Source: a virus
Taxonomy: Duplodnaviria > Heunggongvirae > Uroviricota > Caudoviricetes
Direction: 5' to 3' (one strand)
Virus record (IMG/VR): IMGVR_UViG_3300047493_000037
Span: 94,713-158,712 of that record
Length of the DNA stretch: 64,000 nucleotides
Positions 2,585 to 51,691 of this stretch are shown here, piece by piece. Below the pieces are notes generated by a model that saw only the letters and a program-made list of their open reading frames with translations, ran no database searches and was not told the origin of the DNA. Made by a program: the position numbers and the translations under genes. The first letter of the stretch is position 1, and every line of letters starts with the position of its first letter.

Positions 2585-3343
2585 TCAGATATTAAGTTCT
2601 TTGTAGGAGCGAGGTCTGGTTTTATAGAGAGCTTTTCCCCAGAAGAAATCAGGCGGAATTTCCTTTTCTTTTGAGTTCTTGTCTCTTACAGTGAGAATAG
2701 TGATCGGTGCAGATTGCTTAAGTCTTGTGCAATCCTTCCACTTTCTGTTCTCGTTAAAGTCTTTAGCAAATATTGTTTTCTTGCCTTGAACTAGGTAAAA
2801 GCTAGTGTTTGAGGTCCAAAGCGTGTCCCCGACATTAACAGTTTGAAAGAATTGGTCTACTACCATCATTGTGCTGGTGTTAATCTTGTTCGCTTTGTTA
2901 TGTTGAGTTACGGCTTTAAAAATGTCTTGCTTAGATTTGTGTAGTTGAGCTGGATCGTACTTGTCTTCTAGCAAAATAGCATCTGCATAGTCTGGATCAA
3001 GGACAAACTCAAACCTTTGACCTGGGTCTCTAAATGTGTCGCTATCTAGCCCACCGATGCAGGAAAATAAGCGGCCAGTTGGTGTACCGTTTTTGTTAAC
3101 ACGCTTAACAAAAGGAATGCTATGCTCAGAGCTATAAACAACTTTGTACTTTATCGGAGCTCCATAAGAGTTCGTTTGAACTTTCATCTCAGCGGCTTGG
3201 TTTCCTACATACAGGATTAGAAAGTCACCCACTGAGATCTGCTTTGCTTTTTCCATGGCATCGAGACCGGCTTTAAATTTATCATTAAAGTCTTGCACGA
3301 CCTTTTGGTCGTCTGATGACATTTTTTCTACTTCGTCGCTCAT
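2585..3343 (-). CDS. hypothetical protein, paralog family A
   Basis: 252-aa ORF sharing QRFEFVLDPDYADAILLE and central blocks with 338..1093. Confidence 0.7.
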   Translation of the reverse strand: MSDEVEKMSSDDQKVVQDFNDKFKAGLDAMEKAKQISVGDFLILYVGNQAAEMKVQTNSYGAPIKYKVVYSSEHSIPFVKRVNKNGTPTGRLFSCIGGLDSDTFRDPGQRFEFVLDPDYADAILLEDKYDPAQLHKSKQDIFKAVTQHNKANKINTSTMMVVDQFFQTVNVGDTLWTSNTSFYLVQGKKTIFAKDFNENRKWKDCTRLKQSAPITILTVRDKNSKEKEIPPDFFWGKALYKTRPRSYKELNI

Positions 3344-4137
3344 AGTCCAAGTGCCTTCTTGATCTTTTCTTCATCACGTTCATAGCAATGCAAGCTGTGT
3401 ACCGTATGCGTGTAAGTGCCCTTAGTGAGATTAGGGTAATGTGGCTTCAACTCCTCTACCATCCTGTCGATGAGAGACATGAACCATGGCAAGTCATAAG
3501 TTAGTCCTAGCCACAAATCATTAGAGCGCATAACCACAGAGAGATTTAACTTGTCGTCCCTTATGAGAAAGTTGCCATGTGTTGTGCAGGTGAAATCTTT
3601 GTTACCAACCCAGAAGTGTTCAGGCAATGAGAATCGCATCAAGGCTTGACGAGTATCCTTGTCAGCGATAAGTGATTGCTTTGCCCATTCCCATGGAGTT
3701 CTATCTGCTGCCCCACGCCGCTTAACGTTGTTCCAGTAGGTGACATCGTCTGCGGCAATATCAAAAGCACTACCAACTTCAAAGTTGGGATTACCGTGAC
3801 TTCTGTTTTCCCAAATTAAGTAACCATAAGCAGAATTAACAGTTCCATCTGGGTTGGCAAGCTTTTCCCAGAACTTAGAAGCCTTTGCAAAGTCAGCTGC
3901 CTTATTCGTGCAGGAATTGTAAAGTTCGACTTCTTTGTCGGTGTAGTCAGCAATAACTTTATTGCGTTCTTCATCCTTAGTTAGGATCGACTCATTGGTT
4001 GGATTCTCTACGCGAAATGTGTAGTCAGTCTTCTCTCTAACCGGGAGTCCTCTGGGGGCAGAGCGATATTCATAGTTAAAGTAGACGTCGTGGAGAGTGC
4101 CGAGATATGCTTCGTGAATGTTATTGTAAGTCTTCAT
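3340..4137 (-). CDS. thymidylate synthase (ThyA) family enzyme, predicted pyrimidine (dCMP) hydroxymethylase/methyltransferase
   Basis: Aligns to ThyA core: catalytic Cys in FTCTTHGNF (vs PCHAFF), RSNDLWLGLTYDLPWF vs RSCDVFLGLPFNIASY. The Asn177-equivalent is Asp, the substitution known to switch TS from dUMP to dCMP. ORF-track Met is a TTG; ATG at 4135-4137 (MKTYNNIHE) preferred. Confidence 0.7.
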   Translation of the reverse strand: MKTYNNIHEAYLGTLHDVYFNYEYRSAPRGLPVREKTDYTFRVENPTNESILTKDEERNKVIADYTDKEVELYNSCTNKAADFAKASKFWEKLANPDGTVNSAYGYLIWENRSHGNPNFEVGSAFDIAADDVTYWNNVKRRGAADRTPWEWAKQSLIADKDTRQALMRFSLPEHFWVGNKDFTCTTHGNFLIRDDKLNLSVVMRSNDLWLGLTYDLPWFMSLIDRMVEELKPHYPNLTKGTYTHTVHSLHCYERDEEKIKKALGL

Positions 4138-4245
4138 ATTTTGTAACTTTAGAGATAGAAACCCAATCGTGTTGATAACACCACTTACGCCCAATTAGTA
4201 CGTCTACTCTGCATAGAAGTTTTAATAAGTTTAAGGTTTTAGTGT

Positions 4246-8121: not shown

Positions 8122-8619
8122 CTAATATCCTTTAAGGAACTTCTGGTGCTTGCTAAGAACAAGGCTTCTTTTAACTGGCCCAAGTTGGTCTATATACAAC
8201 TTGCCATTGAGGTGGTCCATCTCATGCTGCACTGCAAATGCGCGAAAACCAGTGAACGTCTCTTGCTTCTCGATGCCAAACCTGTCAAACCATTTTAGCT
8301 TCAGAGTAGAGTATCTCTTAGTTGTTGCTAGTGCTCCAGGTATAGAGAGACAAGCTTCGCCCTCAAAAGGGACGAGGTCGGATTGGCTTAAAATTTCTGG
8401 GTTGATGAACTCGTTAAATGAGGTCTCGTTTTTAAGGATGAACACCTTAACAGATACGCCAATCTGGTTTGCTGCGAGTCCAACGCCGTTGGATGCAACC
8501 ATAGTCTCGTTCATGGCTTCAAGCAAACCAACAATGAACGTGTGGTCTTCTAGGAAGTTAACGGGGTCGCATGGAGTGCGAAGCACTGAATCTGAGACTA
8601 ATCTCACTCTCTCAGGCAT
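8122..8619 (-). CDS. def: peptide deformylase
   Basis: All three PDF motifs: GVGLAANQIG, EGEACLSIPG, QHEMDHLNG; 165 aa; GAGGAA SD upstream. Confidence 0.9.
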   Translation of the reverse strand: MPERVRLVSDSVLRTPCDPVNFLEDHTFIVGLLEAMNETMVASNGVGLAANQIGVSVKVFILKNETSFNEFINPEILSQSDLVPFEGEACLSIPGALATTKRYSTLKLKWFDRFGIEKQETFTGFRAFAVQHEMDHLNGKLYIDQLGPVKRSLVLSKHQKFLKGY

Positions 8620-8753: not shown

Positions 8754-9149
8754 TTATTCATGATTGTTACTCGTTTCAGATTTTGCAGACCTTTCGAACA
8801 GCTCTGTCATGATCGCGTCGATAGTGGTCTGAGCTCGCTTCTGCTTGCCTTCTTGAAAGAATTTTAAGATGGCGGAGAGTCTTTTTGAGGACATCTGGCA
8901 GATGTGCTTTCTGTATAGGTCATTAACTTCTGGCTTGATTTCTTCTCGCCAGTCAAACCTAATAAGCATAACGATGTCTTGAGTGCGCATCTTCTTTTCT
9001 TTTTGACTCAGTTTGTCCTTGTAGACATCGAGAAGTGCTTTCTTGTAGCAAGAATTAGTCCACAGGAGCTGCTGTGCTGCCCTAGGTATCTTTTTGCGTC
9101 TTCTCATGTTAGAGCTCGTCCAACTTGGCAATCTCTCCATCGCGAACAT
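8754..9149 (-). CDS. hypothetical protein
   Basis: 131-aa ORF. Confidence 0.5.
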   Translation of the reverse strand: MFAMERLPSWTSSNMRRRKKIPRAAQQLLWTNSCYKKALLDVYKDKLSQKEKKMRTQDIVMLIRFDWREEIKPEVNDLYRKHICQMSSKRLSAILKFFQEGKQKRAQTTIDAIMTELFERSAKSETSNNHE

Positions 9150-9519
9150 ACTTATCGTATAACCTGTAATAGATTAGTTGACGACGCTTTGCTTCAGCTT
9201 TTTCTGGGGTAGATAGAACCCAGCGGTCGACTTGGCCTTGGCGAGACACCTTGGAATAGACTACGTGATTAGTGTTTTCAATCAGAACTTCGTAGTCATC
9301 GCCAAACTCTGGGATGCCATGAGTGTCCACAACACTTAGATCCTCAGCGATGAGTCTTGCCCTGAGCTGATCTCGCTCTAGGAGAGCAGCTCTTTCTTTT
9401 ACTTCGCGCTTAGTCATTGCTTCTGCAAGAGAGGCTGCCTCGCGCTCGTATTTATCTCTTAGAGCTTGAGGTAAAGAGTCATTGTCTAGCTGATCTTCTA
9501 ACCAAGAGAGCCTGTTCAT
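9109..9519 (-). CDS. hypothetical protein
   Basis: 136-aa ORF, ATG at 9517-9519. Confidence 0.55.
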   Translation of the reverse strand: MNRLSWLEDQLDNDSLPQALRDKYEREAASLAEAMTKREVKERAALLERDQLRARLIAEDLSVVDTHGIPEFGDDYEVLIENTNHVVYSKVSRQGQVDRWVLSTPEKAEAKRRQLIYYRLYDKYVRDGEIAKLDEL

Positions 9520-9551
9520 GTGTATTTATATGATCGGGGAAATATTTGATG

Positions 9552-9815
9552 TTATCTAACTAATCTATAATGAGTCCAATTTACAACAATTGGTGTTCCA
9601 CTCTTGTCTTTTTTGAATGGATTATTTGTTCGTTCAATGGTAACAGTTATGTATTTTTCTTTCACAAGTTCTGTTACTGCATCTTTAACTTTATCGGGCA
9701 TTAAGTTACACTCTTTACAAATTTTTTCTATTGAAGGAATAGCATACCCGAAAGTCATCATTTGTGGAAATAGATAACCATATACAACAGAAGCTTTATG
9801 CGTTAATTGATTCAT
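9552..9815 (-). CDS. hypothetical protein
   Basis: 87-aa ORF; TGTATAAT -10 element 8 nt upstream (9826-9831 complement). Confidence 0.5.
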   Translation of the reverse strand: MNQLTHKASVVYGYLFPQMMTFGYAIPSIEKICKECNLMPDKVKDAVTELVKEKYITVTIERTNNPFKKDKSGTPIVVNWTHYRLVR

Positions 9816-9928: not shown

Positions 9929-10003
9929 TTGGAGCACTCGCTGGGAATCGAACCCAGTCTTTTCGCTTTGCAGGCGAGACCTCATCCCAATCAGGCACGA
10001 GTG
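9929..10003 (-). tRNA. tRNA-Cys: tRNA-Cys (GCA)
   Basis: Acceptor GCACUCG/CGAGUGC, T-arm CUGGG-UUCGAUU-CCCAG, loop CUGCAAA, CCA encoded. Confidence 0.7.
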
Positions 10004-10008
10004 CAAAT

Positions 10009-10084
10009 TTGGTACCCAGTAAAGGAATCGAACCTTTATCAACTGATTCGTAGTCAGTTATCCTAATCCATTGAACGAACTGGG
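10009..10084 (-). tRNA. tRNA-Arg: tRNA-Arg (ACG)
   Basis: Acceptor GCCCAGU/ACUGGGU, anticodon stem ACUGA/UCAGU, loop CUACGAA, T-loop UUCGAUU. Confidence 0.7.
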
Positions 10085-10089
10085 CAAAC

Positions 10090-10164
10090 TTGGAGCGAGG
10101 TGTGGAATCGAACCACTCTTTCCGTTTTTGGCGGCAGTGCTGCCATTACACTAACCCAAGCAAC
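10090..10164 (-). tRNA. tRNA-like element (T-arm + CCA present, acceptor stem does not pair; possible pseudo-tRNA)
   Basis: GUGG-UUCGAUU-CCAC T-arm, 3' ACCUCGC-U-CCA, but no complementary 5' strand found. Confidence 0.3.
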
Positions 10165-10240
10165 TTGGTTGCTCTGAAAGGACTCGAACCTTCATATAAC
10201 GGCTTATGAAACCGCTGCCTAACCTCTCGGCACACAGAGC
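10165..10240 (-). tRNA. tRNA-Met: tRNA-Met (CAU)
   Basis: Acceptor UGCUCUG/CAGAGCA, T-arm GAAGG-UUCGAGU-CCUUU, loop UUCAUAA. Confidence 0.6.
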
Positions 10241-10249
10241 ATCTTAAAT

Positions 10250-10325
10250 TTTGGAGGTCCCACTCAGAATCGAACTGAATTCTCAGCCTTACAAAAGCCG
10301 TGCGTCACCATTTACGCTTTGAGAC
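10250..10325 (-). tRNA. tRNA-Thr: tRNA-Thr (UGU)
   Basis: Acceptor GGUCUCA/UGGGACC (one G.U), T-loop UUCGAUU, loop UUUGUAA. Confidence 0.55.
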
Positions 10326-10326
10326 C

Positions 10327-10400
10327 GTGGAGCAGATATCAAGAATCAAACTTGAGCCACTATGATACCAACATAGTATTCTATCACTAAACTATACCTG
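10327..10400 (-). tRNA. tRNA-Thr: tRNA-Thr (GGU)
   Basis: Acceptor GCAGGUA/UAUCUGC, anticodon stem CUAUG/CAUAG, loop UUGGUAU, T-loop UUUGAUU. Confidence 0.55.
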
Positions 10401-10406
10401 CAAACA

Positions 10407-10481
10407 TTGGAGCTCTGCGGTGGACTTGAACCACCTACTGCTGATTACGAAACAGCGATTATGCCAGGTTAACTAGCAGAG
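10407..10481 (-). tRNA. tRNA (anticodon tentatively CGU, Thr)
   Basis: Acceptor GCUCUGC/GCAGAGC, T-arm GGUGG-UUCAAGU-CCACC, CCA encoded. Confidence 0.5.
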
Positions 10482-10790
10482 CAAATTTTTTAACAAAACT
10501 TCTTGGTTGTCTTCGAAGAACCTCTTTGCGTCTTTAGGTGCTTCGCTTATAAGCTTATTTAACATCGACACCGCTTCGCTCTTCGCCTTGAATCTTCCAA
10601 CCAACTCGAAGTTCAAGAATACGCCAATGTCTCCGCTCTCGTTCCACTCTTCTCCACTTATGATGCAAGCATCAAATATTTCTAGTGTCCCGTAGACCTT
10701 ATAGTCTATAAAGGAGAAACTGTCCCTGAAGTCGTTGAGCACACCTATCCGATACCTAAAATTAAAAGCGCACGTTTTTAAAGTTCTCAA
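10473..10790 (-). CDS. hypothetical protein
   Basis: 105-aa ORF between tRNA array and LAGLIDADG gene; 3' end overlaps tRNA 10407..10481 by a few nt. Confidence 0.35.
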   Translation of the reverse strand: MRTLKTCAFNFRYRIGVLNDFRDSFSFIDYKVYGTLEIFDACIISGEEWNESGDIGVFLNFELVGRFKAKSEAVSMLNKLISEAPKDAKRFFEDNQEVLLKNLLC

Positions 10791-11260
10791 ATGTTGTCAT
10801 GTGTATATTTACCGTTTTTAATGTGACCGACTGTGCTTTTGTCTACATCAACTTCAGCTGCTATTTTTCTAAGACTTAATCCCGTGCTAATGAGCTCTTT
10901 AATCTTATCAAGTTTATGCTTGGTTAACTTTACTCGTTTAACTTTATATCCACTCATCGCCTTATCTATTTGTTCTTGCCTTCGTATGCCCATCAACGGT
11001 CTTAGTTTTGCCATTAAGTCATATGCAAGTTGCCCCGATAAGCGAATCGAGTATACGGTTTTATAATGCGGCAGGTCGCTCTTCCTGCGTTTTTGTTTGT
11101 GACATTTTACCTTTAGAAGCGTAGAAAGTTTTTCAATAATGTCTTTATCTGTTGACGCTCCATTGATAGCGCACATGTTTGGCATTGATGGACATCCATG
11201 AAGAAACGAACCTTCTCCTTCTAACCATCCAGCAAGCCAATACAAATCTTTGTCTTCCAT
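10787..11260 (-). CDS. LAGLIDADG homing endonuclease with C-terminal HTH
   Basis: YWLAGWLEGEGSF (LAGLIDADG motif) and C-terminal sigma-70 region-4-like HTH (LSLRKIAAEVDVDKSTVGHI); start taken at ATG 11258-11260 (MEDKDLY, AAGGT SD) rather than track start 11305. Confidence 0.75.
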   Translation of the reverse strand: MEDKDLYWLAGWLEGEGSFLHGCPSMPNMCAINGASTDKDIIEKLSTLLKVKCHKQKRRKSDLPHYKTVYSIRLSGQLAYDLMAKLRPLMGIRRQEQIDKAMSGYKVKRVKLTKHKLDKIKELISTGLSLRKIAAEVDVDKSTVGHIKNGKYTHDNI

Positions 11261-11275
11261 AAATACCTTATACTT

Positions 11276-11350
11276 TGGCGGAACCAGAGGGAGTCGAACC
11301 CTCACTTCACCTTAGACAGAGGTGTGTCATAGCCGCTAGACCATGGCTCC
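11276..11350 (-). tRNA. tRNA-Asp: tRNA-Asp (GUC)
   Basis: Acceptor GGAGCCA/UGGUUCC, T-arm GAGGG-UUCGACU-CCCUC, anticodon stem CACCU/AGGUG, loop CUGUCUA. Confidence 0.6.
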
Positions 11351-11356
11351 AAACTT

Positions 11357-11431
11357 GGGGTGTAAACTCGGTTACGATCCGAGACCTACTGCTTCACAGG
11401 CAGTCGTGCAAGCCACTACACAATAAACACC
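11357..11431 (-). tRNA. tRNA-His: tRNA-His (GUG) with extra 5' G(-1) and discriminator C
   Basis: Anticodon stem ACUGC/GCAGU, loop CUGUGAA; D-arm GUGU-AGUGGCUU-GCAC; 3' end ...ACAC-C-CCA. Confidence 0.55.
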
Positions 11432-11439
11432 ATCTAAAC

Positions 11440-11515
11440 TGGTCGGCAGTAGAGGGATCGAACCTCTGACCTTGATCTTGTAAGGATCCTGCTGCTTCCG
11501 CTGAGCTAACCGCCG
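11440..11515 (-). tRNA. tRNA-Val: tRNA-Val (UAC)
   Basis: Acceptor CGGCGGU/ACUGCCG, T-arm AGAGG-UUCGAUC-CCUCU, loop CUUACAA. Confidence 0.6.
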
Positions 11516-11520
11516 AAACT

Positions 11521-11596
11521 TGGTACGCGTAGAAGGAGTCGAACCTTCTTTTCTCGTGTATCAAACGAGTGTACTAAACCGGTGTACGATACGCGC
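11521..11596 (-). tRNA. tRNA-Ile: tRNA-Ile (GAU)
   Basis: Acceptor GCGCGUA/UACGCGU, anticodon stem CUCGU/ACGAG, loop UUGAUAC, T-arm GAAGG-UUCGACU-CCUUC. Confidence 0.65.
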
Positions 11597-11597
11597 A

Positions 11598-11709
11598 CAT
11601 TAAAAACACGGGAGGTGTCCTACCACTAGACGACAGCTGCTTGCGCAGCCGGCAGGATTCGAACCTGCGTTTCCACCCTCTCTGTCAAGACTCCGCGGAG
11701 TCTCTAACT
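11598..11709 (-). tRNA. aberrant tRNA-like element (canonical T-arm + acceptor-like hairpin with GCAA loop + D-arm-like segment in non-canonical order)
   Basis: GCAGG-UUCGAAU-CCUGC T-arm followed by CGGCUGC-GCAA-GCAGCUG hairpin and GUCU-AGUGGUA-GGAC; no canonical cloverleaf could be built. Confidence 0.25.
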
Positions 11710-11786
11710 TGGTCGGGATGGTGAGAATCGAACTCACTCGATGTTCTACCTCCAAAGTAGACGGCTCACCTTTAGCCCACATCCCG
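11710..11786 (-). tRNA. tRNA-Pro: tRNA-Pro (UGG)
   Basis: Acceptor CGGGAUG/CAUCCCG, anticodon stem UCUAC/GUAGA, loop UUUGGAG, T-loop UUCGAUU. Confidence 0.7.
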
Positions 11787-11798
11787 AAACTTAAACTT

Positions 11799-11875
11799 TG
11801 GTCCCCTCGGTCGGATTCGAACCGACAACCTTCGGCTTCTAAGACCGACACCTCTGCCAGTTGGGTTACGAGGGG
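11799..11875 (-). tRNA. tRNA-Leu: tRNA with Leu anticodon UAG but class-I (short variable arm) architecture
   Basis: Acceptor CCCCUCG/CGAGGGG, loop CUUAGAA, variable arm 5 nt, T-arm GUCGG-UUCGAAU-CCGAC; D-arm UAACCCAACUGGCAGAGGU shared with three other Leu-anticodon tRNAs. Confidence 0.5.
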
Positions 11876-11877
11876 AT

Positions 11878-11925
11878 CTTGAGAACATCATACTTCGCAC
11901 ATGCAATGCTTTCGCATGTTCTCAA
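11878..11925. repeat. 10-bp inverted repeat hairpin between tRNA genes (TTGAGAACAT...ATGTTCTCAA)
   Basis: Perfect 10-bp stem with 27-nt loop between tRNAs at 11875 and 11929. Confidence 0.5.
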
Positions 11926-11928
11926 ACT

Positions 11929-12002
11929 TGGAAGGGAATGAGTGAATCGAACACTCGTTGACAGGGTCAGAACCTGTTAGCTTACCACTAGCTGAATTCC
12001 CA
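11929..12002 (-). tRNA. tRNA-Gln: tRNA-Gln (CUG)
   Basis: D-arm AGCU-AGUGGUA-AGCU, anticodon stem ACAGG/CCUGU, loop UUCUGAC, T-arm GAGUG-UUCGAUU-CACUC; U1 start. Confidence 0.55.
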
Positions 12003-12012
12003 ACATAAACTT

Positions 12013-12086
12013 TGGAGCGAATAGAGAGAATCGAACTCTCGAAGCCTGCTTGGAAGGCAGGGGTTTTACCACTAAACTACATTCGC
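12013..12086 (-). tRNA. tRNA-Gly: tRNA-Gly (UCC)
   Basis: Acceptor GCGAAUG/UAUUCGC, anticodon stem CCUGC/GCAGG, loop CUUCCAA. Confidence 0.7.
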
Positions 12087-12088
12087 AC

Positions 12089-12162
12089 TGGCAGGGAAAC
12101 ATGGAATCGAACCAAGATTGGCCGGGTCAAAGCCGGCTGTCTTACCACTAGACGATTTCCCT
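12089..12162 (-). tRNA. tRNA-Gln: tRNA-Gln (UUG)
   Basis: Acceptor AGGGAAA/UUUCCCU, D-arm GUCU-AGUGGUA-AGAC, anticodon stem GCCGG/CCGGC, loop CUUUGAC. Confidence 0.65.
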
Positions 12163-12174
12163 ACTTTTAAAACA

Positions 12175-12248
12175 TGGAGCGCGAAGAGAGAATCGAACTC
12201 TCGACCGATGTCTGGCAGACATCTATTTTTCCATTAAACTACTCGCGC
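12175..12248 (-). tRNA. tRNA-Gly: tRNA-Gly (GCC)
   Basis: Acceptor GCGCGAG/UUCGCGC, anticodon stem GAUGU/ACAUC, loop CUGCCAG, T-arm GAGAG-UUCGAUU-CUCUC. Confidence 0.6.
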
Positions 12249-12256
12249 TCGAAAAC

Positions 12257-12799
12257 CTAGCCACTTTCCAATTCTGTCGTCCAATACTCTAACGACTTTA
12301 AATCAACATAAGGTTCCCATTCTTTTGGCAGCACCTTCATCTTAACGATCATCTGAACCGGCAACCACTTTGGCTCAATTGGCTTCTTGAGAAGCTTCAT
12401 CTTTGCCTGCTCAGGAGTTTTGTCCTCTTTTGAGCTGTTGCATGGTCTGCATGCAGTTACGATGTTAGTCCAGTTTGTCTGGCCGCCTTGAGCCCGGGGC
12501 AACACGTGGTCGAACGTTAGCTCTTTCACGGGTTTCCTCTCTCTGCAGTATTGGCAAGTCCACTCATCTCTCATGTAGATGTTGATCCTGCTAAACTGAA
12601 CCTTTCCCTTCCTCTTGAACTTCTTAAGTTGTCTAATTACGCTAGGTAATTTCCACTCCAGATAAGCTGATCTAATCAGCTGACTAGACTCTTCTACAAC
12701 TTCTGCATCGCCGGTGACGATTCTATGCATTGCGTCCTCCCAGCTAATCACTTTGAGAGGCTCATATGTGGAATCGAGTAATAGCACTGCCATATTCAT
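12257..12799 (-). CDS. HNH homing endonuclease
   Basis: TFDHVLPRAQGGQTNWTNIVTACRPCNSSKEDK (HNH: DH...N...C..CN..K); embedded between tRNA genes. Confidence 0.8.
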   Translation of the reverse strand: MNMAVLLLDSTYEPLKVISWEDAMHRIVTGDAEVVEESSQLIRSAYLEWKLPSVIRQLKKFKRKGKVQFSRINIYMRDEWTCQYCRERKPVKELTFDHVLPRAQGGQTNWTNIVTACRPCNSSKEDKTPEQAKMKLLKKPIEPKWLPVQMIVKMKVLPKEWEPYVDLKSLEYWTTELESG

Positions 12800-12898
12800 A
12801 TCCTCTCATTATACGTTGGTGCACCAGCAAGGTAACGATCCTTGTTCCACGGATTAAAAGTCCGCTGCTCATCCTGTTAAAGCTTTCAAGTGCAAATT

Positions 12899-12973
12899 TG
12901 GTAGGACTACGGAGAATCGAACTCCGGTCTACTGGTTAAGAGCCAGCAGCTTTACCACTAAGCTATAGTCCTA
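12899..12973 (-). tRNA. tRNA-Lys: tRNA-Lys (CUU)
   Basis: Acceptor AGGACUA/UAGUCCU, D-arm GCUU-AGUGGUA-AAGC, anticodon stem GCUGG/CCAGU, loop CUCUUAA. Confidence 0.7.
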
Positions 12974-12992
12974 TGTTATTCCTTCTAAAGTT

Positions 12993-13067
12993 TGGTGGAC
13001 AGCTGGGAAATCGAATCCCACCAACCGCAGTGCAAGTGCAGTTCGCCACCTTGGTACATGGCCGCCC
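12993..13067 (-). tRNA. tRNA, tentative Ala (UGC)
   Basis: Acceptor GGGCGGC/GCUGUCC with two G.U pairs, T-arm UGGGA-UUCGAUU-UCCCA, anticodon stem CUGCA/UGCGG, loop CUUGCAC; weak D-stem. Confidence 0.4.
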
Positions 13068-13245
13068 GAATTATTTAATTGTTACTTAGTTTCCGCTAGT
13101 GTATTTATTATTACGCCCAAAGCGGGAGGCGTTTGGTAAGTGGCTTAATGCCATCAGTACCTTGAACACATGGGAGTGCGGTGGCGCAATCGCGCTGCAT
13201 CCCTTTTAGACTTGAGTGTGTGTGTACAAACGTGTTCATAAAATG

Positions 13246-13280
13246 ATTATACCGTGTATTTCCATTAGATTCAGAAATTA
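13246..13280 (-). promoter_or_regulatory. sigma70-like promoter (GGTATAAT -10) upstream of tRNA array 1
   Basis: Minus-strand reading cacgGTATAATca at 13244-13256, same motif as upstream of arrays 2 and 3. Confidence 0.45.
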
Positions 13281-13460
13281 TTTTTTAGAGTGCTCTTTTT
13301 GCAAAACGAACAGCATTACCACCATAGCAATGGGCCATAGAAGTACGCCTAGAATTAGGCCCTTCATTAGGTCTATAAAACTAGCACCATCGTAAGTCTT
13401 AAATCTGGTGATAGCTAAAATAAGGTAGAAAATCCAACCAATTAGGAGATAAGCGCTCAT
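13278..13460 (-). CDS. small membrane protein (two predicted TM helices)
   Basis: 60-aa hydrophobic ORF. Confidence 0.45.
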   Translation of the reverse strand: MSAYLLIGWIFYLILAITRFKTYDGASFIDLMKGLILGVLLWPIAMVVMLFVLQKEHSKK

Positions 13461-13843
13461 TCGATTAACTTCTTTTCTAGCTCTAAAAAGAACTGTATTT
13501 CAGCGATAACTTCATGTCTAACTTCGCTATTATCGCACGGCATCCAATCAGTCCAATCTTTGTCTTCTATTGGATTATTGTATTTTGCATACACTGAGTG
13601 TTTAACGTAAAACTTCTCATTCTCAATCATCCATCTTGCATAAGATGGGCCGGTTATTAGCCAACTTTCAAGTACATATGTTCCATCGTCGTACACAATG
13701 ATGTCTTGATCAGCGCGAGTGTTAACTCTTCCCTTAAAGATGATTCGCTTATCGGTCATTGGGCTTTTTAGGGACAGGCAACTTGCGAGAGTAACGAACA
13801 ACGCCTTGGTACGAAAGAGTTCCTTGAGGGTTGTCATATACAA
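13457..13843 (-). CDS. hypothetical protein
   Basis: 128-aa ORF, ATGA overlap with 13278..13460. Confidence 0.55.
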   Translation of the reverse strand: MYMTTLKELFRTKALFVTLASCLSLKSPMTDKRIIFKGRVNTRADQDIIVYDDGTYVLESWLITGPSYARWMIENEKFYVKHSVYAKYNNPIEDKDWTDWMPCDNSEVRHEVIAEIQFFLELEKKLIE

Positions 13844-13912
13844 GTCGAGTGTCTTCGCCGTTAGCCTTCAAATAGTTGAGACAGAGTTGAAACATGAGCG
13901 TTACTAGATATT

Positions 13913-14332
13913 TCATTTGAGCAAGTTTCTTTCCATGTTGCGACTTAAGAGCTCCTCACGAATAATTTCTACGTAAGAGGTATCGAGGGTAATAAGCTTT
14001 AGGCGATAAGCCTTGATGAGTATTTTAAGGTCGCTCTCGGGAATTCGAATGGTGTCGCTTCTCTCAAACTTGTGTTTCTTATTTATGTCCCACTCATCGA
14101 TGACAGACATCGCCTGTTCACGAATTAATTTTGCACGCGCTTGTGAAACCTGATCCCATCCTTGTAGGGCGAAAGAGATTGGCCAAAAGAACACTACCAA
14201 CGCAAGAAGGAGGCCGTCACCTTTTTCATCTAAGTCAATATGCGTTTTGCTATCGTCTGGATCAATGACGATGATGCTATATATTACAGGCATCACGAAG
14301 GCGCTAATTAGGTAGTAAGTAAACCAACTCAT
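13913..14332 (-). CDS. membrane protein
   Basis: 139-aa ORF with two hydrophobic segments. Confidence 0.55.
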   Translation of the reverse strand: MSWFTYYLISAFVMPVIYSIIVIDPDDSKTHIDLDEKGDGLLLALVVFFWPISFALQGWDQVSQARAKLIREQAMSVIDEWDINKKHKFERSDTIRIPESDLKILIKAYRLKLITLDTSYVEIIREELLSRNMERNLLK

Positions 14333-14341
14333 TGTTGATTA

Positions 14342-14545
14342 TTAGAATCGGAAATTTGTGAAGTGCGATAAGTTAATATACCAGTCTTTTGCTTTAAGAC
14401 TATTACAATCTCTACATCTAGGATTTAACCTAGACTTACTGTTTTTATCGTTTGAGAAGTTAGATTCGTCTAGATCTTGTTTGCAAGAAGAACATGTCAT
14501 TCTTGCATTATACAGTGGTGTTTCCAGCGGGGTTCGAACCCGCAT
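14342..14545 (-). CDS. small Cys-rich (zinc-ribbon-like) protein
   Basis: 67 aa with CSSCKQ...CRDCN. Confidence 0.35.
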   Translation of the reverse strand: MRVRTPLETPLYNARMTCSSCKQDLDESNFSNDKNSKSRLNPRCRDCNSLKAKDWYINLSHFTNFRF

Positions 14546-14591
14546 TTATCGATTGAAAGTCGATTTTCCTAAGCCAATTAGAAGATGGAAA
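14516..14591 (-). tRNA. tRNA-Glu: tRNA-Glu (UUC)
   Basis: Acceptor GUUUCCA/UGGAAAC, anticodon stem AUCGA/UCGAU, loop CUUUCAA, T-arm GCGGG-UUCGAAC-CCCGC. Confidence 0.7.
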
Positions 14592-14593
14592 CG

Positions 14594-14669
14594 TGGAAGC
14601 GCCAATGGGAATCGAACCCATCTTTTCGCATTGAGAATGCGAGGTCCTTAACCAATAGACGATGGCGCC
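14594..14669 (-). tRNA. tRNA-Glu: tRNA-Glu (CUC)
   Basis: Acceptor GGCGCCA/UGGCGCU, anticodon stem UCGCA/UGCGA, loop UUCUCAA, T-arm AUGGG-UUCGAUU-CCCAU. Confidence 0.65.
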
Positions 14670-14781
14670 ATTTTAAGCTGTGATGGGAGATTTAGGTGTA
14701 CGAAGTGAAAACAACGCACACCAAGCGTTCTTGCTCAGATTCCATGAATTGGATTGTGATGTTTGCGTTGTTCATGTGATT

Positions 14782-14815
14782 ATTATACCACGTTTAATTC
14801 TAATGCATCTTCTAA
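14782..14815 (-). promoter_or_regulatory. extended -10 promoter (TGGTATAAT) upstream of tRNA array 2
   Basis: Minus-strand aacgTGGTATAATaa (plus attatacc at 14782-14789). Confidence 0.5.
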
Positions 14816-15028
14816 GGCGCCGTGAGTTCTTTTGTACAGTCTTTCAGCACCTTTTTCAGCTAGTCTTTCAGTGCGATACACTGCCGTGTAAGCCATTTTG
14901 CCTTCTAACTCGCCGTCTTTGTACTCAATGACGTACTTTATCTCCGGATCTCTGCCCATCCCTACTAGCCACATGTAGGTGATAGTAGTTATGCAATAAT
15001 AGTGGCGCCACATGTCATTCACGCCCAT
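14783..15028 (-). CDS. hypothetical protein
   Basis: 81-aa ORF. Confidence 0.4.
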   Translation of the reverse strand: MGVNDMWRHYYCITTITYMWLVGMGRDPEIKYVIEYKDGELEGKMAYTAVYRTERLAEKGAERLYKRTHGALEDALELNVV

Positions 15029-15492
15029 GAAGGTTTAGTGCCGTTCTTCCAAGTAGGAGCTCTCTTGTCTGCAAGCCACTTCTCTTTCATCGTAAGCTTG
15101 TATGCCTCAACAACCTCCATATCCTTATGAGGACTGCAGTTGGCAAACGGAGTTTGAGGTCCTTGAGGCATGAGCACTCTGCCGTCGAATAGAGTGCTAA
15201 AGTATTCGTGGCACTTGTGAATTTTGCCATATCTTAAAGTGTACTGCGCGAGCAAGGAATTAAGGTGAAGAAGTAGCCATACATAATTTCCACGAGAAGC
15301 TCTCACCCAGACAGAGCACGGATGATTTGCGTGAGTTGTCTTATAAGGTCCAGCTCCTCCGGAGAGGTTAATTGCTGTAGATAGCATCTGCGTTGACTCA
15401 AGGATCATCTTGATGACGCGCTTGTCGTCAAGATGATGAGCTGAGATTGCAGGGTCGACATCTGTTACAAATATATTCATCACCAATACCAT
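15019..15492 (-). CDS. denV: T4 endonuclease V-like pyrimidine-dimer DNA glycosylase
   Basis: N-terminus MNIFVTDVDPAISAHHLDDKRV vs T4 DenV [23 protein letters not shown] and C-terminal KRAPTWKNG vs QRPTWYKYYG; similar length. Confidence 0.5.
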   Translation of the reverse strand: MVLVMNIFVTDVDPAISAHHLDDKRVIKMILESTQMLSTAINLSGGAGPYKTTHANHPCSVWVRASRGNYVWLLLHLNSLLAQYTLRYGKIHKCHEYFSTLFDGRVLMPQGPQTPFANCSPHKDMEVVEAYKLTMKEKWLADKRAPTWKNGTKPSWA

Positions 15493-15728
15493 CCAGATAA
15501 TGTTTTCTTAGCAGATTGAAGACCAAGTTTTGCTAAGATAGTGAACACTAAACCTTGTCTCACTTCGGCCATACTAGGCGTATGATAGTACTCTTCCGCC
15601 CCATAAAGAAAGTCAAAGTACTCATCCCACTTCAGCGAATCTTCTTCGCTCGCTTGTTCTTTTATAGAATCAGAAGCACTTTTTGACCTATTGTATTTGC
15701 CTTTTAATTCTTTACTATTTAAACTCAT
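15480..15728 (-). CDS. hypothetical protein
   Basis: 82-aa ORF. Confidence 0.5.
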   Translation of the reverse strand: MSLNSKELKGKYNRSKSASDSIKEQASEEDSLKWDEYFDFLYGAEEYYHTPSMAEVRQGLVFTILAKLGLQSAKKTLSGWYW

Positions 15729-15824
15729 AATTTCATTCTACTAGGTTAAGAAAAATAAATCTAATTCCATCTTGTATTTTTGAACTTTTGTGTTAGAATC
15801 TAGTTATCACCCCAAGGAGGACTT
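15729..15824. promoter_or_regulatory. divergent intergenic region (minus gene 15480..15728 / plus gene 15825..16136)
   Basis: AT-rich 96 bp with TTGAAC and TAGAAT elements and AGGAGG SD before the plus-strand ATG. Confidence 0.35.
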
Positions 15825-16136
15825 ATGAGTCAGACCGTTAATAAGGGTGCCATATCAAAGCTTTGCATCAAGAACAAAGCTCCAGGCACTATTTCCACAG
15901 GCGCAAATACAGAAGTAACACTCGACGGCCAAAAGCTAGGCGGAGTTTCTTTTCTAAAGATGGAGTTTAAACCTAAGAACGTTGTCAAGATTACTATGGA
16001 GATGTATTGTGAAGTTGAAGTCGATGTCGACGTTCAACTAGAGCAAACATCTATCAACCCAGACGAAGAGATTAAGATAGGCGATGCTGTCTATGTCTTA
16101 GGTAAGTACGAAACAGTTGGTTTCCCTAAGAAGTAA
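15825..16136 (+). CDS. hypothetical protein (plus-strand)
   Basis: 103-aa ORF with perfect AAGGAGG SD 6 nt upstream of ATG. Confidence 0.6.
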   Translation: MSQTVNKGAISKLCIKNKAPGTISTGANTEVTLDGQKLGGVSFLKMEFKPKNVVKITMEMYCEVEVDVDVQLEQTSINPDEEIKIGDAVYVLGKYETVGFPKK

Positions 16137-16229
16137 TGGCGGAAGGTAGGGGAGTTGAACCCATGGGCGTTTTTTAGGCGCCGGCAGTTTAGCAAACTGC
16201 TGTGGAAAACCGACATCCACGTACCTTCC
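16137..16229 (-). tRNA. tRNA-Ser: tRNA-Ser (GCU), class II with long variable arm
   Basis: Acceptor GGAAGGU/ACCUUCC, D-stem GUGG/CCAC, anticodon stem GCAGU/ACUGC, loop UUGCUAA, long variable hairpin; 93 nt. Confidence 0.6.
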
Positions 16230-16230
16230 A

Positions 16231-16548
16231 TTAATCCTCAAACGTTAGACCAATTGCTTGCTCAAGTGTCTTATCGATCCAGTTTTGATAGGCTGCATCA
16301 AGTATCTTTTGCTTATCTTTGTTGGCAAAGAAACTTTGCGCCCCAATCAGCCGTTTCCTGACAGTTTCTAACTTACACACCTTATCGTTTTCTATAGCTA
16401 GTAAGCGAACTGTCACCATTTGGTCATGAAATATTGGTTCTTCAGGATCTAACCTTGCAGACATGTTGTCAAAGTTAAAATACCAACAGTCTACTAATAC
16501 TTCTGTTTGTTGAACAACGTTTTGTTTCTTCTTGCTAAATGGCCACAT
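16231..16548 (-). CDS. hypothetical protein
   Basis: 105-aa ORF fitting exactly between two tRNA genes. Confidence 0.5.
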   Translation of the reverse strand: MWPFSKKKQNVVQQTEVLVDCWYFNFDNMSARLDPEEPIFHDQMVTVRLLAIENDKVCKLETVRKRLIGAQSFFANKDKQKILDAAYQNWIDKTLEQAIGLTFED

Positions 16549-16553
16549 AAATT

Positions 16554-16624
16554 TGGTGTCCCCGACAGGAATCGAACCTGCCTATCAGCTTTAGGAAAAC
16601 CGAGACCTATCCTTAGGCGGGGAC
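16554..16624 (-). tRNA. tRNA (71 nt; anticodon arm not resolved)
   Basis: Perfect acceptor GUCCCCG/CGGGGAC, T-arm GCAGG-UUCGAUU-CCUGU, CCA encoded; middle region shares GGAUAGGU element with tRNA 16811..16881. Confidence 0.45.
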
Positions 16625-16625
16625 A

Positions 16626-16702: not shown

Positions 16703-16810
16703 AAATTTTTTACTCTTGTACACCGGGTACGACATAAATACCCGCCATTCAAGTTTTTCGTCTATTACTTCTAGCTTTTTAAGCAAATTTAATAGATCTG
16801 TCATCATATC

Positions 16811-50000: not shown

Positions 50001-51038
50001 ATGACAAAAGTTGACGAGTTAATTAAGAAGTTTCAAGAGTTTAAAGAAGAGCTTAACAAGAACGGCGTCAATATGTCTTGCACGTCAATGCCTAACGCAA
50101 CCACGGGAACTTCTGGTGGTGAAGGCGGAATGTATCGCTCTGAAGTAGATAAGGCAGAAGCTACTAAAGACGCAAAAGTTATCTCAACCAATAAACTTAT
50201 CAAGCCAAGCCAAGTAGAAGATCAGGGCGCATCTAACTTCAAGATTAAGTCTCCTAAAGGAACAAAGATTTCTGGTGGTTCTCGTCACCCAATGACTCAA
50301 GATGTTCCACAGCTAAGACAAAGTGAAGTAGACAAATGTGGCGAAGATATGATGGCCATGTCTGAAGACGTAATTAAGTTTGAGAAGAACGGCCAATGGA
50401 GTTTGAACAAGAGCGCATTCAAAACACTTCAAGGCAAGATCGAGCGTGAAGGCCATAGCAAGGAATCTGCGGGTGCAATTACTGCTTCAATAGGCAGGAA
50501 AGAACTTGGTCAGAAAGAGATGACTGCAAGATCTAAGGCTGGCATGAACAAGGTTGACCCAGATGAGAATGTCAATATCGCCCATCCTCAAGGCAAGGCT
50601 AAGATGGCTAACGGCGTTAACAAAGGCGAAGACGGTATCGACAACGCAAGAGAAGGTACGAGCCAGCGCATTGCTAATCCCCCTGTTAAGGATGTCGGAG
50701 ATGCTCGTGGCAAGATTCACATGGTTAAAGATGAAGGCATAAATGAGAAAGCTGCCTCTTCTAAGCCACACAATAAAGGCAAGTTTAAGGTGATGGACGA
50801 AGTCACTGAAAAAGAATCTAAGAAAGAAAAAGTCACTGGACTACCTTATAGTGGTGATGACAAGAAGATGCATAAGGCGGATGGCACCAACCATGAAGCA
50901 ACAATGAATGCAACAGCTCCAAAAGACCCTAAGGGTCAAGTTCACGTCGTGCAGCACAAAGGCACTGGACCTCAAGGTAACAATGCTAAAGGCAATGACG
51001 AGAACAAAGCTCCTGGCCGCGGAACGCTAAGCGTTTAA
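50001..51038 (+). CDS. Lys/Gly-rich low-complexity (likely disordered) protein
   Basis: 345-aa plus-strand ORF with TAGGAGA SD 5 nt upstream. Confidence 0.65.
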   Translation: MTKVDELIKKFQEFKEELNKNGVNMSCTSMPNATTGTSGGEGGMYRSEVDKAEATKDAKVISTNKLIKPSQVEDQGASNFKIKSPKGTKISGGSRHPMTQDVPQLRQSEVDKCGEDMMAMSEDVIKFEKNGQWSLNKSAFKTLQGKIEREGHSKESAGAITASIGRKELGQKEMTARSKAGMNKVDPDENVNIAHPQGKAKMANGVNKGEDGIDNAREGTSQRIANPPVKDVGDARGKIHMVKDEGINEKAASSKPHNKGKFKVMDEVTEKESKKEKVTGLPYSGDDKKMHKADGTNHEATMNATAPKDPKGQVHVVQHKGTGPQGNNAKGNDENKAPGRGTLSV

Positions 51039-51691
51039 CTCCAATTTAAGGCAGCAGCCACATCAGGAAGTCTACCCTTGAGTAGGTTTCTGCACTCTAT
51101 CGCTATGTCAGCGTGTTCCTTCTGTGTTCCATTACCGGAACGCAACTCAATATAATGAATCCAAGAGCGCACCGACCCGCTCATATAAATAATAGTAGCT
51201 GTATTTAGCGGAAGTAGAAACCTAGCTTGCTCCTTTGCTACACCCTTTGCCAACGCGTCTTCATAAAGCTTATACTGACGCTCCCATGTTTCTTTCTGCG
51301 TGTGCTCAAACCAATTCTTGGTTGTCTCGTCCATGTCATCTATTGAGTTTTGTCTGTTCTTACTATCTTGTCTACGAGCAGGATAAGGAATGTACTCTGA
51401 GGATGCAGCATACCTCTGGCTAAACTCTTGAAACGTGAAAGAGCGATGGCGAAGTATCTGGGCAGCAATGGCACGAGAAGTTTTAATCTCCATCGTAGCG
51501 AACGAGTGCTCGAAGATGCTCCAGTGTTCGTGCGTGATACAATACTTAATAAGCTTACTTCCTGTCTCAAAGCTCATCTGATTATTCGGATTACTCACCC
51601 GTGCGACGTACGAGATTATATCTTGCGCGCTCTTCCCCACAAGATCTTCTACACCTTCCGTTATCGCAACTAATTTTACGCTTTGATCCAT
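51035..51691 (-). CDS. thyX: flavin-dependent thymidylate synthase
   Basis: ThyX motif RHRSFTFQEFS (RHR-x7-S); start at ATG 51689-51691 with AGAGGGA SD (219 aa); track start 51910 would overlap nrdJ. Confidence 0.85.
   Translation of the reverse strand: MDQSVKLVAITEGVEDLVGKSAQDIISYVARVSNPNNQMSFETGSKLIKYCITHEHWSIFEHSFATMEIKTSRAIAAQILRHRSFTFQEFSQRYAASSEYIPYPARRQDSKNRQNSIDDMDETTKNWFEHTQKETWERQYKLYEDALAKGVAKEQARFLLPLNTATIIYMSGSVRSWIHYIELRSGNGTQKEHADIAIECRNLLKGRLPDVAAALNWS

Follow-up and report, generated by a model that had tools for sequence, protein, structure and literature searches.

Which nucleotide is modified by the ThyA-fold enzyme encoded at this locus, and what group does the enzyme add? 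The source is an uncultured phage of ~177 kb. The initial annotation of the window, by which we mean the whole 64,000-nucleotide stretch of DNA that was analysed, had described a ThyA-family protein with Asp in the place of Asn177 of thymidylate synthase (TS). It had proposed a dCMP-directed hydroxymethylase or methylase in a phage with modified cytosine. According to our analysis, the product of the gene is likely to be a folate-dependent enzyme like T4 gp42, which converts dCMP to its 5-hydroxymethyl form. The features on which the discussion draws are collected in Table 1.

Table 1. Features of the window discussed in the text (positions are those of the window)
Feature	Position	Strand	Description
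Predicted dCMP 5-hydroxymethylase (5hm-dCMP synthase), ThyA-fold	3340..4137	(-)	CDS, 265 aa, ATG start; Pfam PF00303
Lineage-specific 252-aa ORF	2585..3343	(-)	Start overlaps the hydroxymethylase stop by 4 nt (ATGA); no sign of pathway membership
ThyX, flavin-dependent thymidylate synthase	51035..51691	(-)	Pfam Thy1 3e-45; NCBIfam TIGR02170
D181-F-T-C184 codons	3586..3597	(-)	Catalytic Cys and Asp at -3 (water-activating residue of hydroxymethylases)
R204-S205-N206-D207 ... D215 codons	3493..3528	(-)	Phosphate-binding Arg, deoxyribose-selecting Ser, folate-contacting Asp, cytosine-selecting Asp
S102-A-Y104 codons	3826..3834	(-)	Equivalent to T4 S94-x-Y96, second half of the hydroxymethylation signature

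Gene and protein family

The open reading frame is present as annotated, and its assignment to the ThyA family is confirmed by Pfam PF00303 above the gathering score (E=2e-9) and by PHROG 160 (4e-30). A TTG codon at 4194 would be an alternative start and would extend the protein to 284 aa. Since the homologs begin with MKxY, the start at 4137 is favoured.

A sequence search of the PDB returned MilA as the best match (66.7 bits, 2e-17) and the T4 dCMP hydroxymethylase (dCH, gp42) with 60.6 bits (1.5e-15), whereas thymidylate synthases reached at most 22.6 bits (~1e-3). When the AF2 model of the protein (pLDDT 96.5) was used as a Foldseek query, the probability was 1.0 for MilA, T4 dCH and TS, with MilA (1e-20, TM 0.75) and T4 dCH (2e-17) ranked above every classical TS. 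All six NCBIfam ThyA equivalog cut-offs were failed, with scores such as 34.3 bits against 174.55, 25.5 against 327 and 19.3 against 108.35. Metagenomes contain more than 1,400 related proteins, and the contigs of the lineage are ~170-180 kb long. The closest database homolog, with 39.6% identity, belongs to the uncultured huge phage LR756500.

Active site

E. coli ThyA (Ec; sequence identical to PDB 1aob) and T4 gp42 (identical to GenBank M37159) were used as alignment references. The columns of Ec142/143 were settled by HMMER and L-INS-i; MAFFT --auto misplaced a gap there. Conservation was counted over 123 full-length sequences, each representing a cluster at 50% identity.

The catalytic Cys and the RS-D core of ThyA are kept, as the initial annotation had stated. 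C184 corresponds to Ec C146 and T4 C148 (Cys in 122/123 representatives), R204-S205-N206-D207 to Ec R166-S167-C168-D169, and G211 to Ec G173; D207, the equivalent of Ec D169, is Asp in every representative (123/123). The alignment to TS and T4 gp42 that had been suggested as a check on the Asp likewise upholds it, with D215 in the column of Ec N177 and T4 D179 (TYDLPWF versus PFNIASY). This position is Asp in 115 of the 123 representatives and Asn in 8, and the Asp is thus a feature of the family and not a chance substitution. Three residues before the Cys, D181 takes the place of T4 D145 and Ec L143 and is invariant (123/123). Y104 is invariant as well, and S102 is retained in at least 90% of the sequences. 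E69, which aligns with the general acid Glu of the T4 enzyme (E60), is conserved in 119/123 representatives. Further positions that match T4 dCH are W90, R163, T185, H250 and Y252, and L93 is a small hydrophobic replacement at the position of Ec W83, comparable to T4 V85.

The phosphate-binding arginines are in part preserved. Of these, R163 and R204 are retained and R29 adjoins the Ec R21 column, but the full set (Ec R21, R126', R127', R166) is broken by Gln164 at the position of Ec R127 and T4 R124. Gln occupies this position in 110/123 relatives, and the L. casei equivalent, Arg179, is reportedly non-essential. An insertion of ~30 residues between Y104 and R163 has no counterpart in T4, E. 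coli or LR756500. The Gln and the insertion are points against the T4-type assignment. After the conserved Tyr the protein ends within 13 residues, whereas E. coli ThyA has 55 more. It therefore lacks the C-terminal segment with which ThyA closes the active site for hydride transfer. A classical thymidylate synthase (ThyA) was rejected in view of D215, D181, L93, the short C-terminus and the NCBIfam scores below the cut-offs.

Predicted substrate and product

The residue rules behind the assignment are published and have been calibrated on a handful of enzymes. Asp versus Asn at the position of Ec177 concerns the choice of base, and Ser/Arg denotes the deoxy type versus Ala/Lys for ribose preference (PMC5175136). 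The hydroxymethylation signature combines Asp or Glu three residues before the Cys with Ser/Thr-x-Tyr; the acidic residue of the T4 enzyme, D145, is water-activating, and the D145N mutant is inactive and yields no hm-dCMP (PMC6400193). The replacement D169N marks flavin-type 5-hydroxy-dCMP (5ho-dCMP) synthases (PMC13326640). Read in this way, the residues of the protein point to dCMP as the substrate and to a hydroxymethyl group, rather than a methyl or hydroxyl group, in the product. The initial annotation had left hydroxymethylase and methylase side by side. The former is favoured by D181 and S102-x-Y104, whereas the latter is disfavoured by the difference from PaMx74 gp52, discussed below.

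Asn occupies the Ec177 position in 8 of the 123 relatives, which may be dUMP hydroxymethylases of the SPO1 gp29 type; Asn is described at this position for that type (PMC5175136). For the present protein this type was rejected because of D215, judged by the published description.

Genomic context and pathway partners

The separate ThyX gene of the initial annotation is well supported: the product passes the equivalog cut-off of TIGR02170 (167 bits against 87.9), and its translation carries RHRSFTFQEFSQR, in agreement with the motif RHRxxSxxxxSxR. A dCMP deaminase gene lies 3.8 kb downstream of the hydroxymethylase gene, in a synteny that is kept in 17 related IMG/VR contigs, and in the relatives L007 and L016 another deaminase paralog immediately follows the hydroxymethylase gene. 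The division of labour, with ThyX for dTMP and a dCMP deaminase nearby, fits the hydroxymethylase assignment. A "T4-like DNA-metabolism complement" had also been noted. The analogy is a loose one and concerns function, as the window encodes a ligase, an RNase H, a class II-like RNR, ThyX and the deaminase. It goes no further: megablast with 20 kb of the window found no match among sequenced phages, and tblastn of three window proteins against sequenced phages left two unmatched and gave distant matches only for the third.

Two other genes of the region deserve mention. The UDG-like gene that adjoins the deaminase gene has no homology to Xp15 gp37, itself a P-loop protein, and was set aside. 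A family of SH3-like paralogs has three copies in this phage.

A search for dCTPase, hm-dCMP kinase and transferase genes had been suggested in the initial annotation. No dCTPase/NTP-PPase, hm-dCMP kinase, glycosyltransferase or carbamoyltransferase gene was found in the 64-kb window. The same holds for ~6.6 kb to the left and ~5 kb to the right (L025) of the window, and, in 17 relatives, for the ±10 kb that surround the gene. As these are the companions needed to replace cytosine fully, the negative result for the sequence searched is a further point against the assignment. For the phage itself the search took in ~76 kb of the 176,837-bp contig, and such proteins can elude sequence profiles. 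No credible partner enzyme was recovered by PHROG and Pfam from ~40 individual ORFs, by PHROG from 95 further window ORFs (best 25 of 37 families) or by Pfam from 89 clusters of neighbour genes from the relatives (best 25 of 38). Nothing credible was obtained when phmmer was queried with the kinases of nattely and Xp15, the NTP-PPase of MW202657 and the glucosyltransferase of nattely, or by scans for Walker-A and MazG motifs. As the abundant lineage would make hm-dCMP with no recognisable kinase, dCTPase or transferase genes nearby, it could use unrecognised enzymes to activate hm-dCMP and to build an undescribed cytosine hypermodification. This is a rather unlikely scenario, for which the conserved flanking genes, including those for the SH3-like paralogs, would be the candidates. 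In this scenario, the Gln found across the family in place of Arg and the ~30-residue insertion specific to the lineage might point to another partner or to another form of the substrate.

Alternative functions

If the enzyme were an Xp12/PaMx74-type dCMP methylase, it would make 5-methyl-dCMP and lead to DNA with 5mC. PaMx74 is reported to replace C with 5mC, and its gp52 to show homology to a 5mdCMP synthase that has been verified (bioRxiv 10.1101/2024.12.05.627091). Asp at the position of Ec N177, taken alone, is also compatible with such an activity, as the N229D variant of L. casei TS is a dCMP methylase according to the citation in PMC8670742, and a dCMP-deaminase-family gene is linked to the synthase gene in 5mC phages too (bioRxiv 10.1101/2024.12.05.627091). 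Nevertheless, we regard a methylase as quite improbable. Judged by a non-acidic -3 residue and a ThyA-like C-terminus, a criterion inferred from one 5mC-phage sequence, PaMx74 gp52, the protein does not resemble a methylase: the family-invariant Asp at -3 is replaced by Asn in PaMx74 gp52 and by Leu in ThyA, and the C-terminal segment, which comprises 61 residues in PaMx74 gp52, is missing here. The S-x-Y motif is A-x-Y in PaMx74. PaMx74 also encodes a DHFR, in the gene frd immediately beyond cd and two genes away from thyA, whereas DHFR was not seen in the ORFs profiled around the hydroxymethylase gene and in the window (best 25 of 37 families in the PHROG set of 95 ORFs). Finally, 5mC phages are able to make dTTP by deaminating 5mdCTP (bioRxiv 10.1101/2024.12.05.627091) and thus need no second synthase, but ThyX is kept here.

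The enzyme could also be a dCMP hydroxymethylase that does not serve wholesale cytosine replacement. Replacement could be partial, the deaminase could turn hm-dC into hm-dU nucleotides, or hm-dCMP could have another purpose. In favour of this reading, which appears unlikely overall, dCTPase, kinase and transferase genes were not found in the ~76 kb of own sequence or in the neighbourhoods of the relatives, some ThyA-linked deaminases act on 5hmdC in vivo (bioRxiv 10.1101/2024.12.05.627091), and L007 and L016 carry the additional deaminase paralog. However, the ~76 kb are a part of the contig, the retention of ThyX argues against replacement of T by hmU, and ThyA homologs with Asp177 are over-represented among contigs that withstand a selection for modified cytosine (PMC8670742).

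Two further activities would require a different product or a different sugar. The flavin-dependent 5-hydroxy-dCMP synthases of the RB69 gp48/DLP3 gp80 type have Asp at Ec177 and an acidic Ec143 residue in common with the present protein (PMC13326640), but such an activity is hardly credible, since D207, the equivalent of Ec D169, is kept. A protein from Mosigvirus, the genus of RB69, has Asn at this position and has also lost the equivalents of Glu58 and Trp80, both of which are kept here. A MilA- or BcmA-like CMP hydroxymethylase, with a role related to RNA or to a nucleoside metabolite, would be in line with MilA as the top match by sequence and fold. It is very improbable in view of the residues that select the sugar, because Ala176 and Lys133 of MilA correspond to Ser205 and Arg163 here and the A176S/K133R double mutation abolishes the CMP activity of MilA (PMC5175136). 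The position of the gene argues in the same direction, as the surrounding phage genes form a nucleotide-metabolism block that includes a dCMP deaminase.

Proposed mechanism and implications

By homology, Cys184 of the predicted dCMP hydroxymethylase would attack C6 of dCMP. Asp215 would hydrogen-bond to and protonate N3/N4 of cytosine, so that dCMP is chosen over dUMP, and the 2'-deoxy nucleotide would be selected by Ser205, Arg163, His250 and Tyr252. Glu69 may activate 5,10-methylene-THF for the joining of the one-carbon unit to C5, and a water molecule held between Ser102 and Tyr104 may remove the C5 proton. Instead of a TS-like hydride transfer, water activated by Asp181 would then add to the exocyclic methylene. 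The expected products are 5-hydroxymethyl-dCMP and THF, and DHF would not be formed. dTMP would arise by a separate route, in which dCMP deaminase provides dUMP and ThyX converts it. In a later step, hm-dCMP would be phosphorylated and incorporated, and the DNA, with 5hmC or a derivative, would be shielded from host nucleases.

On the sequence evidence, the phage probably makes modified cytosine. We infer that the virion DNA is modified from the published association of ThyA homologs with Asp177, and of deaminase-ThyA linkage, with modified-cytosine contigs (PMC8670742; bioRxiv 10.1101/2024.12.05.627091). Should this hold true, cytosine is replaced or decorated in a phage lineage that is widespread in the environment and has no close match in public phage genomes, which would affect the behaviour of its DNA in sequencing and restriction-based methods and the choice of host defences that work against these phages. 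It would also show where to seek new DNA-modifying enzymes. The finding adds to an established picture rather than opening a new one, since earlier publications cover this class of enzyme, its spread in metagenomes, the rule for Asp177 and the connection with modified DNA of metagenomic phages.

Comparison with known systems

E. coli ThyA has the fold in common with the 265-aa protein, together with the Cys, Glu58, Tyr94, Arg166, Ser167, Asp169, His207 and Tyr209, but its N177, L143, W83 and H147 are replaced by D, D, L and T, and its C-terminal 40-odd residues are absent. The Xp12/PaMx74-type dCMP methylases are similar in the ThyA fold, the Cys, the Asp at Ec177 and the linked deaminase gene. 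Identity to E. coli ThyA is 32% for PaMx74 gp52 and 18% for the present protein. RB69 gp48 and DLP3 gp80 also share the ThyA fold and the Cys, and differ in being flavin-binding, O2-using enzymes with D169N (PMC13326640). MilA (PDB 5JNH, 5B6D), the CMP hydroxymethylase of mildiomycin biosynthesis, resembles the protein in the N-terminal 'APRG' region and in Asp at both Ec177 and Ec143 (PMC13326640). In contrast to the phage protein, it has an extra C-terminal region and belongs to bacterial secondary metabolism.

The nearest public phage sequences (27-40% identity) come from the Enterococcus phage nattely/VPE25 group, Xanthomonas phage Xp15 (gp36), the metagenomic sequence MW202657 and LR756500. 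In the literature consulted on ThyA-family enzymes we found no biochemical characterisation of these homologs. The D / S-x-Y / D / D signature is shared by the nattely/VPE25, Xp15 and LR756500 proteins, whereas MW202657 has Gly for Ser; LR756500 shares the Arg-Gln pair as well. Among these, the nearest annotated relatives lie in clusters for cytosine modification, which speaks for the assignment. The nattely cluster comprises a P-loop kinase, the ThyA homolog and a beta-glucosyltransferase, the Xp15 cluster a carbamoyltransferase, a P-loop protein, the ThyA homolog, a deaminase and a ligase, and the MW202657 cluster an NTP-PPase, a 'pyrimidine hmase' and a deaminase. In LR756500, a nattely-like glycosyltransferase is encoded 1.6 kb downstream of the homolog (phmmer 1e-36). 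The P-loop kinase directly adjoins the ThyA homolog in nattely and Xp15, but has no such place in the present lineage.

T4 gp42 (PDB 1B5D/1B5E, 6A9A) is only ~22-26% identical to the 265-aa protein. It has R124 in place of the Gln, lacks the ~30-residue stretch after Y104, and has a longer C-terminus, with 28 residues past the conserved Tyr. As the partner synthase, ThyX here stands in for the ThyA-type td of T4. Equivalents of T4 gp56, gp1 and the glucosyltransferase were not found in the ~76 kb searched; in T4, genes 42, 56 and 1 are scattered around the genome. The two enzymes nevertheless agree in fold, in the Cys with Asp at -3, in S-x-Y, the Glu and RSND, in Asp at the Ec177 position and in the His and Tyr for the 3'-OH, and in both pathways a dCMP deaminase and a distinct thymidylate synthase accompany the enzyme.

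Gene and family membership

An intact ORF on the minus strand of the window (3340-4137) encodes the query, a ThyA-fold protein of 265 amino acids whose own residue numbers are used below. The ATG at 4137 is the likely start, since homologs begin at the MKxY after this codon; with an alternative TTG at 4194 the protein would be 19 residues longer. The stop shares 4 nt (ATGA) with the start of the next ORF. A Shine-Dalgarno sequence is not obvious before either start (4120-4160 and 3340-3360), which might point to a host with SD-independent initiation. The protein matches PHROG 160 (E=4e-30) and Pfam Thymidylat_synt, the latter above the gathering score (E=2e-9). Among 1.84 billion cluster representatives searched, 3,410 were relatives, 112 of them with E<=1e-30. 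Family counts below refer to 123 full-length representatives of 50%-identity clusters.

Substrate and reaction type

The query was aligned by HMMER to T4 dCMP hydroxymethylase (T4 dCH, gp42; identical to GenBank M37159) and by MAFFT to T4 gp42 and E. coli ThyA (Ec; identical to PDB 1aob). Because both alignments place the residues alike, the initial annotation described them correctly: the catalytic Cys is kept (C184, Ec C146, T4 C148), as is the RS-D-LGL core with its RSxD motif (R204-S205-N206-D207, Ec R166-D169), and TYDLPWF replaces PFNIASY, with D215 at the position of Ec N177 and T4 D179. Asp at Ec177 marks enzymes acting on cytosine substrates (MilA, the CMP hydroxymethylase of mildiomycin biosynthesis, BcmA and T4 dCH), whereas Asn marks those acting on uracil substrates (thymidylate synthases and SPO1 dUMP hydroxymethylase; PMC5175136, also PMC8670742). 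The query thus stands on the cytosine side of this rule; among the relatives, 115 of 123 have Asp and 8 have Asn. The T4 dCH ternary complex links hydroxymethylation to Ser/Thr-x-Tyr and to an Asp or Glu that sits at -3 from the Cys and activates the substrate water; the T4 mutant D145N has no activity, and the residue of ThyA corresponding to D145 is Leu (PMC6400193). Both elements are present in the query (D181-F-T-C184 and S102-A-Y104), and D181 is invariant (123/123).

The query fell outside every other class tried, namely classical ThyA, 5-hydroxy-dCMP synthase, MilA-type CMP hydroxymethylase, dUMP hydroxymethylase and PaMx74-type methylase. The 5-hydroxy-dCMP synthases, described recently and dependent on flavin and O2, have Asn in place of Ec D169 (PMC13326640); this column holds Asn in a Mosigvirus (RB69 genus) protein, and Asp in the query (D207) and all 123 relatives. 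The CMP preference of MilA rests on Ala176 and Lys133 (PMC5175136); the corresponding query residues, Ser205 and Arg163, are of the deoxy type. A methylase had been left open in the initial annotation ('hydroxymethylase/methylase'). As a direct control for it we aligned one sequence, from Pseudomonas phage PaMx74: in this phage 5mC reportedly takes the place of C, and its ThyA homolog has verified 5mdCMP synthases among its own homologs (bioRxiv 10.1101/2024.12.05.627091). The PaMx74 protein shares Asp at Ec177 with the query, but its residue at -3 from the Cys is Asn, its Ser/Thr-x-Tyr site reads A-x-Y, and its C-terminus resembles that of ThyA (61 residues). The query ends just 13 residues past the conserved Tyr, so that the C-terminal segment of ThyA is missing. 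The hydroxymethylase half of the proposal is supported by residue rules, sequence and fold, and the PaMx74-type methylase features are not matched.

Searches of known sequences and structures point the same way. The best PDB sequence matches were MilA (2e-17) and T4 dCH (1.5e-15), with the best true thymidylate synthase only at ~6e-4, and the six NCBIfam equivalog models for thymidylate synthase all scored the query far below their cut-offs. With 90 diverse homologs as input, AlphaFold2 gave a confident model (pLDDT 96.5, pTM 0.91), and Foldseek ranked MilA (1e-20) and T4 dCH (2e-17) over every classical thymidylate synthase. Since residue rules, PaMx74 control, PDB search, NCBIfam scores and Foldseek agree, the gene product is quite probably a folate-dependent dCMP 5-hydroxymethylase. 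It is predicted to work like T4 gp42, and its reaction mechanism would be that of T4 dCH, taken over by homology.

The query has every dCMP hydroxymethylase feature tested except one of four phosphate-binding arginines. Gln164 occupies the position of Ec R127 and T4 R124, the second of the paired arginines supplied by the partner subunit. The change is family-wide (110/123), and includes the homolog from LR756500, one of the nearest public phage sources. The equivalent Arg of L. casei thymidylate synthase is reportedly dispensable. In the closer subfamily of the query, the loop between Y104 and R163 is also longer by ~30 residues (59 residues, vs 27 for T4 and 32 for E. coli; 23 to 81 across the family) and is modelled with somewhat lower confidence (residues ~110-146, pLDDT 80-87). 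Neither Gln164 nor the loop contradicts the hydroxymethylase assignment.

Genomic neighbourhood

Features of the window and adjoining loci
Feature	Position	Remark
~250-aa paralog	338-1093
ORF overlapping hydroxymethylase stop	2585-3343 (-)	lineage-specific paralog family, three copies here
Peptide deformylase	8122-8619
26 tRNA genes	9930-18216; outliers 33624-33700, 42466-42544	all minus strand, mostly one array
Homing-type HNH endonucleases	10787-11260, 12257-12799	inside tRNA array
VTC-domain protein (polyphosphate polymerase/triphosphate-tunnel)	19312-20223	303 aa; Pfam E=4e-34
NinI-like phosphatase	20816-21595	adjoins VTC-domain gene
NAMPT (nicotinamide phosphoribosyltransferase) and PRPP synthetase (ribose-phosphate pyrophosphokinase)	36401-38655	NAD salvage pair; NAMPT: PHROG 448, E=3e-186
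ATP-dependent DNA ligase	45045-45884
ThyX	51035-51691 (-)	Pfam Thy1, TIGR02170; divergently adjoins ribonucleotide reductase
Ribonucleotide reductase	51743-53407	554 aa
Fe-S assembly protein (HesB/IscA-like)	53388-53726	next after reductase
RNase H	54132-54587
~250-aa paralog	L002 (left of window) 13854-14480
dCMP deaminase, then directly UDG-like protein (140 aa)	L002 14641-15512	just left of window; ~3.8 kb downstream of hydroxymethylase gene
Gad2 (PF26128) protein, ~230 aa	L001 (related locus) 9082-9777	directly upstream of hydroxymethylase; homologs in L010, L014-L016, L021

The separate ThyX gene noted initially is real (Thy1 3e-45; NCBIfam equivalog TIGR02170 167 bits, cut-off 87.9; RHR...S.R motif). 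The supposed T4-like DNA-metabolism complement, on the other hand, is a generic large-phage nucleotide toolkit with no particular likeness to T4.

The dCMP deaminase and the short family-4 UDG-like protein are encoded on the same strand as the hydroxymethylase, and the pair is conserved in ~15 related contigs. Gene order is kept in 17 related IMG/VR contigs: small ORFs, hydroxymethylase, variable slot, three unknown ORFs, unknown ~250-aa protein, deaminase, UDG-like protein. A deaminase lies within ±3 kb of the ThyA homolog in 70% of modified-cytosine contigs vs 6% of unmodified ones (bioRxiv 10.1101/2024.12.05.627091); in this contig the two genes are 3.8 kb apart. Two relatives (L007, L016) carry a second deaminase paralog immediately downstream of the hydroxymethylase gene. 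The deaminase domain of L010/L014/L015 and L016 makes up the C-terminal portion of a longer protein (337-366 aa) whose N-terminal half is uncharacterised. The Gad2-type gene is absent from the window.

All three ~250-aa paralogs are found no more than 6 kb from the hydroxymethylase gene; in most related contigs the family is represented once. We assign no role to the 2585-3343 product, because its AlphaFold2 model, though confident, contains only small SH3/Tudor-like beta-barrel domains with weak structural neighbours.

The partners whose search had been proposed (dCTPase, hm-dCMP kinase, glycosyltransferases) were not found in the sequence searched for this lineage: no NTP-PPase/dCTPase, P-loop kinase, or glycosyl- or carbamoyltransferase was among the matches listed for the window, ~6.6 kb to its left and ~5 kb to its right (together ~76 kb of the phage's own sequence) or for ±10 kb around the gene in the 17 relatives. 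The searches used PHROG and Pfam, phmmer with proteins of the homolog-bearing phages nattely, Xp15 and MW202657, and Walker-A and MazG motif scans.

Possible DNA modification and comparison with known systems

That cytosine is modified wholesale in virion DNA is perhaps somewhat favoured, with lower confidence than the enzyme assignment. That the lineage turns hm-dCMP, via unrecognised enzymes, into an undescribed modification seems improbable.

The window comes from a metagenomic contig of 176,837 bp. Against the public phage collection it gave no match at the DNA level (megablast of 20 kb); by tblastn, two of three window proteins had no match there and the third only distant ones. The dCMP hydroxymethylase class has been known since the T-even phages, and the residue rules and such homologs in uncultured phages are already published; new here is a further predicted dCMP hydroxymethylase in a poorly known phage lineage. 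Its nearest annotated homologs lie in clear cytosine-modification clusters. The nattely cluster combines a P-loop kinase, the ThyA homolog and a beta-glucosyltransferase, and in LR756500 a nattely-like glycosyltransferase lies 1.6 kb downstream of the homolog. The Xp15 cluster comprises a carbamoyltransferase, hydrolase, P-loop protein, ThyA homolog, deaminase and ligase, and that of MW202657 an NTP-PPase, a 'pyrimidine hmase' and a deaminase. In PaMx74, the gene next to the thyA homolog is cd, for dCMP deaminase, and the one just past cd is frd, for dihydrofolate reductase.
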